Made by a program: the position numbers and the translations under genes. Shown in pieces: positions 2,628 to 37,615 of a stretch of 37,615 nt of DNA. Within the stretch, counting starts at the first letter, position 1. Each line of letters opens with the position of its first letter. The notes below the pieces were generated by a model. It did not search any database, was not told the DNA's origin, and was given only the letters and a program-made list of their open reading frames with translations. Source of the DNA: a virus (lineage: Duplodnaviria; Heunggongvirae; Uroviricota; Caudoviricetes); the IMG/VR virus record IMGVR_UViG_2721755720_000002, positions 1 through 37,615 of that record. One strand, 5' to 3'.

Positions 2628-3226
2628 TGGTTGCCTCCTTTGCGAATCTGTTCAGCGATATCTTCGAGAACACCATCAGAGAATGAGCGGTCAAAATCGC
2701 CTTCCGGCGCATTAGCCATAAACTCAGTAGAGGTAAGAATCATCCGGGCAATATCCGCGGCGTTCTTCGCAGTATCATCAATAAAACCAGCTTCCCAGGC
2801 AGCCAGCATTCTGTTCGCCACAAAGTAAGCTCCCTCCTTGCGTGCTTCAGTCTTCACTTCAGCCAGGAAAGCATCGGTGGCTGGTGTTTGCGGCATCCCT
2901 CCATCTGTTGCGCAGATATACGCATCAGATATTTCATCCTGCTCGCCATCAAACACGTAGCAACTCTGTGCGATAAATTTATTCAGCCCAGCATTCTCCG
3001 CTGCCAGCGCTGAAAACTTCTCGTGTGCCAACTTAACAGCCGAATCAGCCTGCTTAATTGACTCAATCGCTCTCTGCTGGTCTTCGGCCAGCGCCGAAAT
3101 CTTGGCCTCCGCTTCAGCAAATTTACGCACCAGATATTCAGCGTTTGTTTCGTTAACCTTTAAATCACATGGGATGCATTTACCTTTCAGAAATCCATCC
3201 ATCTCAATTAGTGACATTTGTTTCAT
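2624..3226 (-). CDS. hypothetical acidic early protein (about 200 aa; start at ATG 3226, alternatives 3244 or 3217)
   Basis: ORF track 2624..3244; the ATG at 3226 overlaps the stop of the upstream small ORF (ATGA). Confidence 0.4.
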
Positions 3227-3387
3227 TTCTTCCCACTCCGCCACATCGCATTCAGATATTTGTTGTCATTAACAGAACCGAAACTCTCTCGCTTAAGTAA
3301 TTCCTCTCTCGATGGCATTGGCTTTACGCGCTGGCGAATAATCATTTCTGCCGGAAGAATTCCGGGATTGTATGCAAGTCCTCTCAT
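3223..3387 (-). CDS. small hypothetical protein (54 aa)
   Basis: GAGGA Shine-Dalgarno right after the upstream stop, then ATG at 3387; product [15 protein letters not shown]... Confidence 0.3.
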
Positions 3388-3397
3388 GGTAAATTCC

Positions 3398-3694
3398 TCA
3401 GTCATTACTGATAGCGCCATAGCGTGAGCGGTAATTACGCAGGCGCGGGTCGATATATTCAGGGAATTGGGTATATGTGGCTTTGCGGAATGGTCGGATT
3501 GATGTCTGGTAAATTCGCTCTCGTTCTTCTTTCTCTGCAAGCCATATACAATGGCGAAATTCCTTTTCCTCTTTCGTTTCCTGCGGTAGCGACATTATCC
3601 GATCGTAGTTTTTTCTGAATTTATCCAGCACCTCCGATACGGAATTGCCGGAACAGCGGCGCGCGTCATCCGCACCATACAGAGGCGCTGGCAT
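3398..3694 (-). CDS. hypothetical protein (98 aa)
   Basis: AGGAG Shine-Dalgarno before ATG at 3694; sits directly downstream of the exonuclease gene. Confidence 0.45.
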
Positions 3695-3710
3695 GGTTTT
3701 CTCCTGTTGA

Positions 3711-4259
3711 TTATTTAGCTAACTTTTTCCAGATCGCTGAAACGTATTTGGCTTGGTGAATGGCATCATCAAGCGCGTTGTGGCGAGTTCCTTTGAATGG
3801 CATATCTCGCTTAGGGTCGAATCCTATTACCTTCCCAAGTTCGACGATTGTTCTTACGTCGCGGTCATTCCACCACTTCCACGGAACTGGCTGCCCTGTC
3901 AGCGAATAACTGTTTCGGAGAATAACGCAGTCAAATGATGCTCCATTCCCCCAAACCTGAACGAATTTGTGGTTAGCGTTCTTTATGATGAATTCAGATA
4001 ACCATGAAAGAGCCGTTGAAAGCTCCTGAGTGTTGCTGGTTAGCGATTTTCTGGCTTCTTCACTCTGTTCCAGCCACCATAAAATCGTTGAAGCGTCAGG
4101 ACGCGCTCGATATCGCATTGATGATTCAAGCGAGATATTTACCGAGAACTCTTCTCCTGTTTCTCCGGTATTCGGGTCAAAGAATACCGCCCCAATAGAA
4201 ATAACTGGCGCGTATGGCCCGTTGCCCATTGTTTCAAGGTCAACCATCAAGTGATTCAT
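3711..4259 (-). CDS. DnaQ-like (DEDDh) 3'-5' exonuclease
   Basis: 182 aa; MVDLETMG and HNALDDA motifs typical of DEDD exonucleases; AAGGA Shine-Dalgarno; lies next to SSB and the annealing protein. Confidence 0.7.
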   Translation of the reverse strand: MNHLMVDLETMGNGPYAPVISIGAVFFDPNTGETGEEFSVNISLESSMRYRARPDASTILWWLEQSEEARKSLTSNTQELSTALSWLSEFIIKNANHKFVQVWGNGASFDCVILRNSYSLTGQPVPWKWWNDRDVRTIVELGKVIGFDPKRDMPFKGTRHNALDDAIHQAKYVSAIWKKLAK

Positions 4260-4267
4260 GTAAGTCC

Positions 4268-4783
4268 TTAAATTGCGTGAATAGCGTGACGAGGGAAGGG
4301 GAGAGTTACTGGTGCAAAGGGGATATCGTCGTCAAAATCCATAGGTGGTTCGCTGTGATTTCCCTGCTGCTGAGGTTGCTGTCTTTGTTGCTGACCATTA
4401 TTTCGCTGAGGTGAAGACTGTTCATTGCCTCCTTGCTTGCCACCAAGCATTTGCATGGTTCCACCAACGCCCACGATGACTTCGGTAGTGAACCGATCCT
4501 GTCCGCTTTGATCCTGCCATTTTCTTGTCCGCAATTTGCCTTCAAGATAAACCTCAGAGCCTTTTCGCAGATATTCGCTGGCAATTTCTTCCAGTTTCCC
4601 GCTCATTACCACGCGGTGCCACTCCGTCTGCTCCTTTTGCTCTCCAGTTTTCTTATCACGCCATTGTTCTGACGTAGCAACGGTAAGGTTTGCAAATGCC
4701 GTTCCTGATGGTGAATATCTGATTTCTGGATCATGCCCAAGGCGACCAATAATGATCACCTTATTTACGCCTCTGCTTGCCAT
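4268..4783 (-). CDS. ssb: single-stranded DNA-binding protein with a 15-residue extension after the DDDIPF tip
   Basis: OB-fold N-terminus [22 protein letters not shown], Gly/Gln-rich linker, [11 protein letters not shown] followed by [15 protein letters not shown] before the TAA. Confidence 0.85.
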
Positions 4784-5491
4784 TTATGCCGCCTGTTTTA
4801 GTTCGTTAACTCTGATGTTCATTACCTGAACGCATTTAGCCTGCGCCTCCTCGTTGCCAGCCATTAATTGCCAGTCATGCTGATAACGCTCGATGAGTTT
4901 TTTCTTGTCAGTTTCTGTCGCTGCATAATCGCTGAAGTCTTTCAGGATTTGTTCGCAGTCAACCGATGGATATTTCTGGTTGGTATTTTCTGGTGATGGT
5001 TTGTTATCTGATGCTGGGATTGCCCAGCCCGGCAGCGATGGAGGGAGCCAGTAAAATCCTGTTCCATCCTTGAGTTTTGCCCTGTGCCATCCCTGCTTTT
5101 TGTCGAGAGATGTTTGTGCGAAACCTTCCTCAAGGTTATACAGATACCGACCGATTCCCCATTGAACGGCAGCGCGCTTCATTGCACCGGAACGACCACC
5201 TTTGACGGCTTCTACCTGCGTGTTTTCAGCAGCATCCCATTTGGTTACCCATTCGGAATCAATCTTTATCGATATGCCGCATTCAACGCCGCCGTTGTTG
5301 GGAATATCGCGGTATTCATTGCGCCATCCTGCTTTGCCGCAAACATCGTCCAGGCGTTTCATGATTGCCCGGTTCGTGACATAAGCCAGCACCATAGCCC
5401 ACACTTTGCCATCGCGTGTTTTACCGCTTTGCTGTATTCGCCATTCGATATCTTCAGGGCTGAATGGCTCATCGAATTTATTCAAATCCAT
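4784..5491 (-). CDS. Rad52-family (Sak/DUF1071-like) single-strand annealing protein
   Basis: 235 aa; KRAAVQWGIGRYLYNL motif recalled as Rad52/22-type; GAGGTGA Shine-Dalgarno; its stop directly abuts the ssb ATG. Confidence 0.55.
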   Translation of the reverse strand: MDLNKFDEPFSPEDIEWRIQQSGKTRDGKVWAMVLAYVTNRAIMKRLDDVCGKAGWRNEYRDIPNNGGVECGISIKIDSEWVTKWDAAENTQVEAVKGGRSGAMKRAAVQWGIGRYLYNLEEGFAQTSLDKKQGWHRAKLKDGTGFYWLPPSLPGWAIPASDNKPSPENTNQKYPSVDCEQILKDFSDYAATETDKKKLIERYQHDWQLMAGNEEAQAKCVQVMNIRVNELKQAA

Positions 5492-5991: not shown

Positions 5992-6303
5992 TTAGGCGGC
6001 TGATGTTTCTTCTTTCAGGCTTTCGAGATATTTACGTGGGTCGTCGCAACATTGGCATTCGCTGTACCAATCCACCCAGCGATCAGTAAGCCCCATATCT
6101 GATAAATCTTCATCGGTAAGGCTCTCATCCCACATCTCAAGGCCGTTAGCATTGCAGTAATCAGGCTTGATGTTGTTGTCATACTGAAAGGCGTCATAAT
6201 CAGCCAGTGCGTCCATCAGGCGAACACCCTCTTCAACACTTGCCACTTCTACAATGAACGGCTTCATAGGTACTTGCGGGATATGCCAGACACGTAATTT
6301 CAT
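5992..6303 (-). CDS. acidic hypothetical early protein with ECQCC motif (103 aa)
   Basis: GGAGGA Shine-Dalgarno before ATG at 6303; highly Asp/Glu-rich product. Confidence 0.5.
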   Translation of the reverse strand: MKLRVWHIPQVPMKPFIVEVASVEEGVRLMDALADYDAFQYDNNIKPDYCNANGLEMWDESLTDEDLSDMGLTDRWVDWYSECQCCDDPRKYLESLKEETSAA

Positions 6304-6924: not shown

Positions 6925-7251
6925 TCAAATAAGTGGCTTGCTGCCTAATTTCATTTTCTGGCGACCAACACAAGTCACACCCATTTCACTGCGTGGCTTG
7001 CTGTACCATGTGCGCTGATTCTTGCGCTCAATACGCTGCAGGTTGCTTTCAATCTGTTCGTGGTATTCAGCCAGCACCGTAAGGTCTATCGGATTCAGTG
7101 CGCTTTCTACTCGTGATTTCGGTTTGCGATTCAGCGAGAGAATAGGGCGGTTAACTGGTTTTGCGCTTACCCCAACCAACAGGGGATTTGCTGCTTTCCA
7201 TTGAGCCTGTTTCTCTGCGCGACGTTCGCGGCGGCGTGTTTGTGCATCCAT
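6925..7251 (-). CDS. N: antitermination protein N (lambda type, 108 aa)
   Basis: Product MDAQTRRRERRAEKQAQWKAANPLLVGVSAKPVNRPILSLNRKPKSRVESALNPIDLTVLAEY... is near-identical to lambda N as recalled; nutL lies upstream. Confidence 0.9.
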   Translation of the reverse strand: MDAQTRRRERRAEKQAQWKAANPLLVGVSAKPVNRPILSLNRKPKSRVESALNPIDLTVLAEYHEQIESNLQRIERKNQRTWYSKPRSEMGVTCVGRQKMKLGSKPLI

Positions 7252-7361
7252 CTGGATTCTCCTGTCAGTTAGCTTTGAGTAACGCGCCGTGATGCTTATC
7301 TCCACGGTTGCTGTCTTGCAGCTGCATTTCGCGCTACTCAAAGCTTTCTGCTTTGAATGCT

Positions 7362-35001: not shown

Positions 35002-36123
35002 TTATTTTGGAAGATTAGTAAACCAAGGGATTGTCATTGCCTGGCGTTCAACCGCAGTGACTATTACCAGATCAGGTTTATAGGTACCAATTATGCGCGT
35101 CATAATTTCAGGTGTCGCCATAACAGCCTGATAATGCTGCTGGAATATGTTGGAGAAGGTAGCGTTCATGAACGGTTCCATTCCATCACCAAATGAATCA
35201 CGTAACCACAAGACCTTCATTGAGTTAAGTGCAGTTTCATTCCTGGTTTCCTGAGGAACATTACGATGTATGGTAGAGTTATCAATCGGTAACACTTTTT
35301 TGAATGCCCCATACCAGTCATAAACCTTGACAGTCTTTGCACCAGGTACTTTTGCAGTGTACTCAACATCTATTAGAGAGTCCTGAAGGCGAAGGAATCT
35401 ACTAAGGTCACCACCATTTCGTGATGATGCTGAAATATCAACGTCTTTATCGGTGAGCCATTTTATATTAGGTACTTGTTGAGAAATTCTATGCGAAATC
35501 TCCTTGTAACCGGCCCATGCACCTCTTTTGTTCCAGTGGGTATCGGTTTTATAATATAGAGGGCCATTATTCTTCAAGTTATCAAAAGACGCACCCATAT
35601 TGATGAAGGTGTGATCGCCTTTTGCTGAAGACAAGAGGTATTGAGTGTTTCTGCTACCGCCATTTTCGATAAGCCATTTTGGCGAAAACTCGGGGTAAAC
35701 TGTATGTTTATCTGGAGCAAAGCTTACAAAGTATCCCTTGCCGCCATAACTTTTGACGTAACTATCCCAGGCAATCCTTGCTTTAGCCATTTTGTCTATC
35801 TGCGGCCTGATATCCTTTGTAAGATTCCTCTTTTCTGAAAGAGTGTTTGAATATTTATCACCAAGGAACAGCCATCCATTTTTACCAACTATGGTCTCTT
35901 CAGGATAAAGAGATATCCCAACTTTATATAGCACACCAGACAGAGGCGGGATTGCAGAGTCAAGGTTATACAGACCATCAACGTTAAACCAATCAGTAAC
36001 ATCAGTTTTAGAGAAGTCAATAATTTTCGCACCATTAATAGCACCATCTTTAACATTTACCAACGGCGCTATCATTAAAAGAGCGAGTGAACTCACAGCA
36101 AAACTACAGATGTATTTTTTCAC
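35002..36123 (-). CDS. AlgJ/AlgX-like SGNH-type periplasmic O-acetyltransferase partner with N-terminal signal anchor (373 aa from GTG; ATG at 36162 possible)
   Basis: GAGGAG then 6 nt then GTG at 36123; hydrophobic N-terminus ICSFAVSSLALLMIAPLV; YYKTDTHWNKRG motif resembling the AlgJ/AlgX catalytic D-x-H-W; LRDSFG downstream; overlaps the MBOAT stop. Confidence 0.6.
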   Translation of the reverse strand: MKKYICSFAVSSLALLMIAPLVNVKDGAINGAKIIDFSKTDVTDWFNVDGLYNLDSAIPPLSGVLYKVGISLYPEETIVGKNGWLFLGDKYSNTLSEKRNLTKDIRPQIDKMAKARIAWDSYVKSYGGKGYFVSFAPDKHTVYPEFSPKWLIENGGSRNTQYLLSSAKGDHTFINMGASFDNLKNNGPLYYKTDTHWNKRGAWAGYKEISHRISQQVPNIKWLTDKDVDISASSRNGGDLSRFLRLQDSLIDVEYTAKVPGAKTVKVYDWYGAFKKVLPIDNSTIHRNVPQETRNETALNSMKVLWLRDSFGDGMEPFMNATFSNIFQQHYQAVMATPEIMTRIIGTYKPDLVIVTAVERQAMTIPWFTNLPK

Positions 36124-36133
36124 GACTCGCTCC

Positions 36134-37615
36134 TCAGAAATTAAAATACAGGAAAACTGCATTTGTGGATTTTATGGTTGCATACACGGCAGTTACAAAA
36201 AGAACAACCATACATATTGTTTTAATACCATAAGACCCCTTGGCGATGGTCATTTCGTATGAGTTTTTTAATGGGGTGATTATGAAACCAATTAATATCA
36301 ACGAATAGCAAAGGAAGTTCTCAACAATTCCAACGGGAAGGAATGTTGATAATTTATCTGTAAATACGCCACCCCATGCCAGCATGTCAGTTGGAGCATT
36401 CTGAATGGATAGTGCACTTACTGAACCAATGTCAATCATTCCTCGCAGGATACGCATGGCATCGCCTACAGAATGAGCACGGAAGAAAACCCACGCAACG
36501 TTAACAAACATAAATGTAATAAACCATGCCAGAACCGAAGGTAGCGAGAACCCTCTACGCTTCCACCATCGGTGGATGACAAGAGCGCCACCATGCAGCA
36601 CGCCCCATATGATAAACATCCAACTTGCACCGTGCCACAGCCCACCCAGAACGAACGTAGCAAACAGATTAAAATACACCCTGGCGCTGGAACATCGGTT
36701 CCCACCCAAAGGGATGTATATATAATCGCGAAGATAGCGACCAAGGGTTATGTGCCATCTGCGCCAAAAGTCCTGTATATCAAAAGATTTGTATGGTGAA
36801 TTGAAGTTTAGAGGGAGCCATATGTTAAAGAGAAGCGCGGCCCCGATCGCCATGTCACAGTAACCACTAAAATCAAAATAAAGTTGAAATGTGTAAGAAA
36901 GACTGGCGGCCCATGAGCTAAAGAAATCATGCTGCGCCCCAGGTGCAAACCCTGCATCTGCGAACACTGCAAAGTTATCCGCGATAACAACCTTCTTGAA
37001 TAACCCAACACTGAAGATAAACAACCCCATAAAAATATTTCTGTATCTTATAGCGCAATTCCACTTAGACTGGAACTGGGTCATCATCTCTTTATGGTGA
37101 AGTATTGGCCCTGCTATAAGGTGCGGGAAGAATGTTACGAACAATGCATAGTTGACGAAGTCATACTCTTTAGCGCTCCCTCTGTAACTATCAACAAGAA
37201 AAGCCGTTTGGGTAAAAGTATAAAAACTAATACCGAGTGGAAGTATTATGTTCCTAAAAGTAAGCTCATAACCGCTAAGAGCATTGAAATTCTCAATGAA
37301 GAAGTTTGTGTATTTATAATAACCAAGCAAAGACAAATTCACGATAATAGCTATTGTTAAAATTGCCTTACGCGAAAACGGTATTCTGACCCCTTTGACA
37401 TGCGGAGAGACAGCCCCTCCGGCAATGAAGTTGAAAAGGATGGAACCTAACAATAATGGGAGATAGCTCACATCCCAATAGCCATAGAAGAAGAGACTGC
37501 AAGCCACAAGCCAAACCTTTCCAGCGTATACCATTCTGATTTTATTTAAGAAAAAGTACACAAAGAAGGATATAGGCAAAAACAGAAAAATGAATACAGG
37601 AGTACTGAAAAGCAT
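36134..37615 (-). CDS. MBOAT-family membrane-bound O-acyltransferase (AlgI/DltB/PatA-like, 493 aa); start codon is the last three bases of the window
   Basis: Multi-pass membrane protein; N-terminus MLFSTPVFIFLFLPISFFVYFFL; FWRRWHITLGRYLRDYIYIPLGG and LWHGASW motifs carrying the conserved MBOAT His; AT-rich coding region. Confidence 0.85.
   Translation of the reverse strand: MLFSTPVFIFLFLPISFFVYFFLNKIRMVYAGKVWLVACSLFFYGYWDVSYLPLLLGSILFNFIAGGAVSPHVKGVRIPFSRKAILTIAIIVNLSLLGYYKYTNFFIENFNALSGYELTFRNIILPLGISFYTFTQTAFLVDSYRGSAKEYDFVNYALFVTFFPHLIAGPILHHKEMMTQFQSKWNCAIRYRNIFMGLFIFSVGLFKKVVIADNFAVFADAGFAPGAQHDFFSSWAASLSYTFQLYFDFSGYCDMAIGAALLFNIWLPLNFNSPYKSFDIQDFWRRWHITLGRYLRDYIYIPLGGNRCSSARVYFNLFATFVLGGLWHGASWMFIIWGVLHGGALVIHRWWKRRGFSLPSVLAWFITFMFVNVAWVFFRAHSVGDAMRILRGMIDIGSVSALSIQNAPTDMLAWGGVFTDKLSTFLPVGIVENFLCYSLILIGFIITPLKNSYEMTIAKGSYGIKTICMVVLFVTAVYATIKSTNAVFLYFNF

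Follow-up and report, generated by a model that had tools for sequence, protein, structure and literature searches.

The 37,615-nucleotide stretch of viral DNA analyzed here (positions 1 to 37,615 of the Caudoviricetes record IMGVR_UViG_2721755720_000002 in IMG/VR, hereafter the window) carries at positions 3711-5491 three back-to-back minus-strand open reading frames (ORFs) coding for a single-strand annealing protein (SSAP), a single-stranded DNA-binding protein (SSB) and an exonuclease (gene exo). The initial annotation had described them as a tightly packed phage recombination operon with a DEDDh (DnaQ-like) nuclease, predicted to act with 3'-5' polarity, instead of one of the lambda Exo/RecE type. 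The packing and the gene identities are confirmed: the TAA stop codon of the SSAP gene abuts the ATG of ssb with a gap of 0 nt, 8 nt separate ssb from exo, and all three products have clear Pfam or PHROG matches. A fourth gene of the block, beyond the segment covered by that annotation, starts 16 nt downstream of exo and codes for a full-length homolog of the P22 protein Abc2 (PF11043, E=3.2e-61). With genes for PF04098, PF00436, PF16473 and Abc2 proteins contiguous in the pL early operon of a P22-like/lambdoid prophage, as placed by the N gene (6925-7341) and a cI-like repressor gene upstream, the block is well described as a recombination module, and it unites in the early left operon all four functions of the ES18/epsilon34 class, namely an anti-RecBCD protein, an SSB, a nuclease and an annealing protein. 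A scan for promoter and terminator signals inside the block found none above shuffled background, promoter-like sites being fewer than in shuffled sequence, and gave no sign of a promoter belonging to exo itself.

Profile searches place the 182-residue exonuclease in PF16473 (246.1 bits; Pfam gathering cutoff 27); residues 2-177 align with positions 1-177 of the 177-position profile. The residues of the DEDDh signature (D7, E9, D110, H160 and D165) do not vary among 14 homologs (58-81% identity) and line up with the catalytic residues of DexA from phage T4. The AlphaFold (AF2) model, with a predicted local distance difference test score (pLDDT) of 90.7 and a predicted template-modeling score (pTM) of 0.88, displays an RNase H-like alpha/beta fold; Foldseek searches with this model recovered DexA (8KEN/8KEL) as the best match (TM score 0.79, E=6e-12), with further matches to RNase T, a Cas2-DnaQ domain, Cap18, ExoI and Orn. 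In a phmmer search of the PDB, the DexA structures 8KEL/8KEN were the only solved structures reached by sequence (E=2.8e-14, 33% identity). By both sequence and fold the closest characterized relative is the DNA exonuclease T4 DexA, and the assignment to the DEDDh/DnaQ-like family, from which a 3'-5' polarity is predicted, is robust. The window protein differs from DexA in being 45 residues shorter and in lacking both its extra loops and its D90 tetramer contact, and its gene lies beside ssb in the pL operon of a temperate phage, whereas DexA belongs to a lytic phage with modified DNA.

No 5'-3' family membership came to light for this nuclease, which has no Pfam match to the lambda Exo/RecE/YqaJ PD-(D/E)XK domain. 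Furthermore, no ORF of the window resembles lambda Exo, Bet or Gam, RecE, RecT or a Cas4-like PD-(D/E)XK nuclease: when lambda Exo, RecE and two Cas4-like nucleases served as phmmer queries, none of the window's ORFs was hit at E<=1, and a domain scan of other left-operon ORFs found no nuclease domain. None of the exonuclease, the SSAP and Abc2 is covered by an NCBIfam model. The exo gene is under purifying selection, with a ratio of nonsynonymous to synonymous substitution rates (dN/dS) of ~0.13, and its GC content, overall and at third codon positions (GC3), bears no foreign signature. A 217-residue E. coli protein annotated as an SSB (P0130) joins SSB residues 1-59 in frame to exonuclease residues 26-182 and lacks the D7/E9 motif; we ruled it out as a functional SSB-exonuclease fusion and regard it as what a deletion left behind in a prophage undergoing decay.

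The annealing protein is a chimera. It matches PF04098 (Rad52_Rad22) with E=5e-26 and 91.9 bits against a cutoff of 20.3, and PHROG 1097 with E=2e-129, so that its N-terminal annealing domain is of the Rad52/Sak type and not of the Erf family; only the C-terminal ~70 residues (nt 4784-4996) are Erf-like, sharing 66% identity with the end of P22 Erf (E=1e-24). The same Rad52/Erf chimera has been described in gp36 of phage epsilon34 (PMC2629481). The Erf-type C-terminal domain may be a partner-interaction domain common to modules of the Abc2 type.

The SSB is of the bacterial type and contains an internal DDDIPF motif which, rather than forming the canonical end of the protein, is succeeded by a 15-residue extension (nt 4271-4315); the NCBIfam SSB models stop at residue 156. 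Many phage SSBs have kept this extension, and variant forms of it occur in prophages of Thalassotalea and Tolumonas. Since partner proteins bind the free C-terminal phenylalanine of SSB, the extension may alter which partners the window SSB recruits. A link between the extension and the presence of exo was considered and rejected, as the extension occurs in HK75, which lacks exo, and several loci with exo have the canonical IPF end. Both types of SSB found near exo, the bacterial type and the HK620 type, end in acidic-aromatic tips (DDDIPF and DDNFSPF, respectively), the kind of tip that recruits partner proteins. Sf6 and CurroJimenez (L001:3196-3685, L003:3469-3958) carry an HNH endonuclease gene whose insertion point immediately follows the IPF codon of ssb; the insertion gives the SSB back its canonical ...DIPF end, and the 14 codons of the former tail are read as part of the HNH gene.

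An optional cassette between ssb and abc2

Comparison of related phages reveals that exo occupies a variable slot between ssb and abc2. This slot is empty in HK75, holds an HNH endonuclease gene in Sf6 and both the HNH gene and exo in CurroJimenez_Bas106, while exo alone fills it in the window, mEp235, mEpX2, epsilon34 and g341c. The insertion is exact: in HK75 the sequence ...CAATTTAA runs directly into TCAGGAGAAAAACATG (abc2), whereas in the window ...CAATTTAA is joined to GGACTTACATG, which leads into exo, and the far end of the cassette, TAAATAA, is joined to TCAACAGGAGAAAACCATG (abc2). The cassette thus sits precisely between the ssb stop codon and the ribosome-binding site of abc2, and in HK75 the AGGAG-bearing sequence preceding abc2 comes directly after the ssb stop codon.

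Population surveys likewise show exo to be optional. The full block is present in 13 of 241 matching phage records. A set of 5,426 complete E. coli genomes contained 374 with this SSAP-SSB pair, 151 with the exonuclease and 139 with the whole block, and ~60% of otherwise similar E. coli modules are without the exonuclease. As the plaque-forming phages Sf6, HK75, HK620 and P22 lack it, exo is dispensable for growth, and the Sak4 protein of HK620 together with that phage's own SSB is enough for oligonucleotide recombineering (PMC5928155). At the DNA level the window block is ~86% identical to its counterparts in epsilon34 and g341c, 92% to those of mEp235 and mEpX2, 98% to that of CurroJimenez_Bas106 and 99.9% to that of an E. 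coli PEC301 prophage. In the complete E. coli genomes the exo DNA is always >=95% identical to that of the window, a floor obtained from megablast with a 549-nt query that would miss more distant copies, and the adjoining SSAP-SSB DNA is 80-99% identical; this suggests that the cassette spread recently among diverged modules.

The arrangement is already known, and the window represents a further, near-identical member. The epsilon34 genome paper (Villafane et al. 2008) lists the same set of genes and calls the nuclease "unusual in this context" (PMC2629481). A more recent study (Genome Research 2025) describes a "DnaQ-like 3'-to-5'" nuclease, remarks that enzymes of this kind are usually inhibitors of recombination, considers the epsilon34 gene likely to belong to the recombination module and notes sporadic DnaQ-type genes near int (PMC12315714). 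The puzzle raised by the initial annotation, a predicted 3'-5' nuclease where a 5'-3' enzyme would be expected, is the same one raised by these authors. Between the ES18-class modules with an epsilon34 gp34-type "DnaQ" nuclease and the window we see no essential difference, the order Abc2, nuclease, SSB and chimeric Rad52/Erf SSAP being the same. What the present survey adds is the exact cassette junctions, the population frequencies, an SSB-linked clade extending across four SSAP types, and the coexistence of the family with PD-(D/E)XK nucleases. Literature searches on the Rv2179c family in phages, or on DEDDh enzymes together with prophages and SSB, returned nothing relevant.

Association of the exonuclease family with SSB genes

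We then examined the gene neighborhoods of relatives at 160 loci, comprising 80 bacterial contigs (one genome per species) and 80 viral contigs, and could classify the neighbors in 151. Upstream sequence was available for 73 species-level loci, of which 13 are linked to SSB and 35 to xis/int, with no locus linked to both. At the 13 SSB-linked loci the SSB gene lies directly upstream of exo, with an HNH gene between them in one, and the SSAPs are diverse: four Rad52, four Sak4 with SSB-2, two Sak4b, two Erf and one locus at which no SSAP was called. In a neighbor-joining tree the enterobacterial SSB-linked exonucleases form one clade, all members of which with upstream sequence are SSB-linked. 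What varies within this clade is the SSAP (Rad52, Erf, Sak4 or a second AAA_24/Sak4-like type), the downstream gene, and even the SSB, which is either of the bacterial type or of the unrelated HK620 type. At least three SSB-linked cases, in Photorhabdus, Thalassotalea and Tolumonas, fall outside the clade. The exonuclease is therefore not a random passenger but travels with an SSB gene whatever the annealing protein. Its retention right after the SSB gene across four unrelated SSAP families suggests that phage recombination by single-strand annealing includes a real 3'-end-processing step on SSB-coated DNA.

In the lytic-type phages RcPacific and VLCpiM12a the gene order is PD-(D/E)XK nuclease, gp2.5-like ssDNA-binding/annealing protein, DEDDh exonuclease and DNA polymerase. 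Because a PD-(D/E)XK nuclease of the classical resecting type stands alongside, the DEDDh enzyme is in these phages an addition and not a replacement.

A large sister clade (54-63% identity) is always found just upstream of xis/int (L008-L011, L029-L070, L138-L176; exo at ~4001-4546 in each). Its neighbors include genes for DUF2303 (YfdQ-like) proteins, deoxynucleoside monophosphate phosphatases, dATP/dGTP pyrophosphohydrolase domains (PF04447), DndB and methyltransferases, and SSB and SSAP genes are absent. T4 DexA is linked to the host dGTPase (optA), and the nucleotide-pool and DNA-modification theme of the sister clade is reminiscent of that link. A different architecture occurs in phage Tritos, whose 823-residue "exonuclease VIII" (L005:1584-4055) resembles, over residues 262-625, the N-terminal, non-catalytic part of Rac RecE (40% identity, E=2e-62) and has, in place of the C-terminal PD-(D/E)XK domain, a DEDDh domain 59% identical to the window exonuclease; a RecT gene is not adjacent.

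Probable resection by RecBCD and a candidate 3'-end trimmer

In P22, Abc2 binds RecC and converts the host RecBCD into a resecting enzyme, and resection provided by RecBCD is the published reason why phages with Abc2 manage without an exonuclease of their own (PMC9836394, PMC5928155). In light of the abc2 gene adjoining exo, we propose that the job of lambda Exo or RecE, the production of 3' tails by 5'-3' resection, falls in the window phage most probably to host RecBCD after its re-programming by Abc2, and consequently that the exonuclease is not a stand-in for a 5'-3' nuclease. The headline of the initial annotation had cast the DEDDh enzyme in just this part, and two further observations tell against such a substitution: relatives with the same SSAP, SSB and Abc2 either lack exo or carry an HNH gene in its slot, and lytic phages pair the exonuclease family with a PD-(D/E)XK nuclease and a gp2.5-like protein. 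We hold with high confidence that the exonuclease of the window phage is an accessory component and no substitute for Exo. Abc2 is present in 37 of 38 viral contigs of E. coli/Salmonella relatives. The window has 0 Chi sites against 1.03 expected, which fits phages with Abc2, although the deficit is not significant.

The system accordingly resembles that of P22 (Arf, Erf, Abc1, Abc2) in its Abc2 homolog, its Erf-type SSAP C-terminus, its operon position, the lack of a phage 5'-3' exonuclease and the lack of Chi sites, but differs in that the annealing domain is of the Rad52/Sak type and not Erf, and that an SSB gene, with or without exo, takes the place of Abc1. With lambda Red (Exo-Bet-Gam) and Rac RecET it shares the early-left-operon combination of an SSAP, a nuclease and an anti-RecBCD function. 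In contrast to those systems, however, its nuclease is a DEDDh enzyme, predicted to act 3'-5', and not a 5'-3' PD-(D/E)XK enzyme; its proteins do not resemble Exo, Bet, Gam, RecE or RecT in sequence; and RecBCD would be co-opted by Abc2, whereas it is blocked by Gam in lambda.

As for the exonuclease itself, DexA acts 3'-5', prefers single-stranded over double-stranded DNA and is non-essential; together with the polymerase exonuclease it affects both the efficiency of homing and co-conversion when T4 repairs double-strand breaks during intron homing. Single-strand annealing, furthermore, generally needs the removal of 3' flaps. Since this nearest characterized homolog processes 3' tails in double-strand-break repair, and since annealing requires flap removal, we posit, with moderate confidence, a role in trimming. 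By homology to P22, RecBCD modified by Abc2 would make the 3' tails, which SSB and the SSAP would coat and then anneal; the DEDDh enzyme would act 3'-5' on single-stranded 3' ends in these SSB-covered intermediates, trimming non-homologous or excess 3' tails and flaps such that the annealed joints could be extended and ligated. E. coli ExoI, ExoX and RNase T share the DEDDh fold and act on the 3' ends of single-stranded DNA; ExoI is recruited by the C-terminal tip of SSB, and RNase T trims 3' overhangs in repair. Unlike ExoI, the single-domain window protein has no evident SSB-binding domain of the ExoI type, and it is the linkage of the genes that suggests an interaction of the exonuclease with SSB. 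To the composite reading, a P22/epsilon34-type recombination module with an accessory SSB-linked 3'-end trimmer and with resection via Abc2 and RecBCD, we assign a probability of about 0.5. Of the other roles that the initial annotation had entertained for the nuclease, end trimming is accordingly the one now favored, whereas proofreading is unlikely in a phage without a polymerase; its observation stands, and its interpretation is partly supported.

Several points weigh against this reading. Abc2 is nearby in only 3 of 12 SSB-linked species-level modules, another nuclease in none, and for this reason the argument from Abc2 is limited to the window and its E. coli/Salmonella relatives and does not extend to the whole clade. 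The small downstream proteins of the modules without recognizable Abc2 are diverse, and tblastn and phmmer searches found no similarity to Abc2 among them. The sister clade has no link to recombination genes, and the Pfam name of the PF16473 family is that of an exoribonuclease. The trimming role is, for this protein and its close homologs in recombination modules, extrapolated from sequence relationships. ExoI, ExoX and other 3'-5' exonucleases usually lower recombination by destroying 3' tails (PMC12315714), and the E. coli homolog EcD is reported to be inactive on unmodified double-stranded DNA and to act as a defense against T4 (PMC12153337).

The strongest of the alternatives, which we nevertheless consider unlikely, is that the enzyme has a DexA-like function unrelated to annealing, either scavenging DNA for nucleotide pools or attacking the DNA of competing phages, as in the published "HREX" proposal that DexA homologs of E. 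coli digest T-even DNA modified with 5-hydroxymethylcytosine (5hmC), with its place in the recombination module serving convenient expression. Scavenging of host DNA is among the established roles of DexA, the sister clade resides among genes for nucleotide metabolism and DNA modification, and an optional, cassette-like gene would suit such a function. Plasmid-borne EcD protected E. coli cells against T4 (NAR 2025, PMC12153337), and the features published for EcD, a short-form DexA homolog with conserved catalytic residues and tryptophan and no equivalent of D90, recur in the window protein, in which W130 corresponds to DexA W152, T82 and not an aspartate stands at the D90 position, and the DexA loops are absent. 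The equivalent of the acidic DexA residue D169, however, is ambiguous, F147 falling in its column with D148 adjacent (MAFFT alignment, in a gapped region), and EcD (HAK9828821.1) was not among the proteins listed for five E. coli clusters. The match in PADLOC is a weak one to a generic Cas-associated DEDDh protein (E=2e-4). Moreover, unlike EcD, exo lies in a repressed early operon together with recombination genes, and its 8- and 16-nt spacers and the lack of a promoter signal would not lead one to expect expression in a lysogen. The constant position after non-homologous SSB genes and gp2.5-like genes would also be left unexplained.

In a second alternative, which we judge distinctly improbable and which corresponds to the different mechanism that the initial annotation had allowed for, the exonuclease is the true resection nuclease but with reversed polarity: duplex ends would be resected 3'-5', the complementary 5' tails annealed by SSB and the SSAP, and the recessed 3'-OH ends filled in by polymerase. 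Vaccinia DNA polymerase joins duplexes in this manner via its 3'-5' proofreading exonuclease (PMC1802553, PMC9415595). The likeness to vaccinia E9 lies in a virus exposing complementary strands with a 3'-5' exonuclease (PMC1802553); in E9 the exonuclease is part of the polymerase, whereas resection of duplexes by the window enzyme is hypothetical. As 9 of the 12 species-level SSAP-SSB-exo loci have no gene for Abc2, lambda Exo, RecE or a Cas4-like protein within ~4 kb, the DEDDh enzyme is the sole nuclease of these modules; the post-ssb position is conserved across four SSAP types; and in Tritos the RecE N-terminal scaffold carries a DEDDh domain where the PD-(D/E)XK domain would otherwise be, although phages of the Tritos type lack an SSAP. 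For the window the presence of Abc2 speaks against reversed polarity, as do the absence of exo from so many similar E. coli modules and from the viable phages HK75, Sf6, HK620 and P22, and the coexistence of the family with PD-(D/E)XK nucleases in lytic phages. Recombination modules can, in addition, do without any nuclease (84 of 246 have none), and DexA prefers single-stranded DNA, while EcD did not degrade unmodified double-stranded DNA. Across the family at large some truly different mechanism may operate, in that many SSAP-SSB-exo modules of other species are without recognizable Abc2. Similarly improbable, but worth stating, is the reading that the DexA-family enzyme serves SSAP-SSB-exo modules as a dedicated recombination nuclease that is coupled to SSB and reversed in polarity, either exposing 5' tails as in poxviruses or required to finish annealed joints. 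Were this true, it would constitute a third kind of nuclease partner in phage recombination, beside lambda Exo/RecE and hijacked RecBCD. Current models are not overturned by the window, the layout having been published, the gene being optional and Abc2 being the standard explanation for a missing 5'-3' nuclease; yet SSAP modules underlie recombineering, and knowing which accessory genes help or hinder it is of practical value.

A role outside DNA recombination, as an exoribonuclease on RNA 3' ends or as an anti-defense enzyme removing a host single-stranded DNA, RNA or oligonucleotide signal triggered by the phage SSB, SSAP or anti-RecBCD proteins, appears to us highly unlikely. The family is named after the 3'-5' exoribonuclease Rv2179c of M. 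tuberculosis; the structural neighbors of the window protein include RNase T, Orn, REXO2, ERI and Cap18, the last associated with the cyclic-oligonucleotide-based antiphage signaling system (CBASS); and recent papers tie phage proteins antagonizing RecBCD to the activation of defense systems. On the other hand, the closest relative by sequence and fold acts on DNA, the PADLOC hit mentioned above is the only match to a defense or anti-defense family, and nothing specific points to an RNA or signal substrate. Proofreading in trans for a DNA polymerase, for which the DnaQ-like fold and the proximity of a polymerase gene in RcPacific, VLCpiM12a and two Photorhabdus/Xenorhabdus loci could be adduced, is hardly tenable given that the genes of the window phage, although they specify an O-type initiator and a DnaB-type helicase, do not include one for a polymerase, and that host Pol III carries its own epsilon subunit.

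Feature coordinates and neighboring genes

The coordinates of the block, its two cassette junctions and the gene preceding it are collected in Table 1. That gene, a 56-residue ORF 8 nt upstream of the SSAP gene, occupies the position of P22 arf, a slot that is also filled in Sf6, HK75 and CurroJimenez.

Table 1. Genes and junctions of the recombination block in the window, in order of transcription
Feature	Coordinates	Strand	Supporting match or comparison
arf-position ORF, 56 aa	5500..5670	-	HK97 gp42-like; PHROG 1723, E=4.5e-34
SSAP with Rad52/Sak-type N-terminal and P22-Erf-type C-terminal domain, 235 aa	4784..5491	-	PF04098, PHROG 1097
Bacterial-type SSB, 171 aa	4268..4783	-	PF00436, E=4e-37
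Upstream cassette junction: 8-nt spacer, Shine-Dalgarno AAGGA overlapping the ssb stop	4260..4267	-	HK75/Sf6/CurroJimenez comparison
DexA/Rv2179c-family DEDDh exonuclease (predicted 3'-5'), 182 aa	3711..4259	-	PF16473, E=2.3e-73; PHROG 255 "exonuclease"
Downstream cassette junction: 16-nt spacer with AGGAG ribosome-binding site of abc2	3695..3710	-	Junction comparison
Abc2 anti-RecBCD protein	3398..3694	-	PF11043, E=3.2e-61; PHROG 656, E=5.5e-56

Downstream of the block lie genes for DUF2737, Ead/Ea22 and DUF551 proteins. The 105-residue ORF at 3223-3540, in a different frame from the abc2 gene that it overlaps, is spurious; the genuine gene there is a 54-residue DUF2737 ORF at 3223-3387 (PF10930, E=4e-29). 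Upstream in the same operon is a superinfection-exclusion gene of the P22 gp17 type (5992-6303; PF17420, E=4e-55). Near the right end of the window, on the minus strand, an SGNH/AlgX-like gene of the acyltransferase type (35002-36162) may be a surface-modification (seroconversion) gene.

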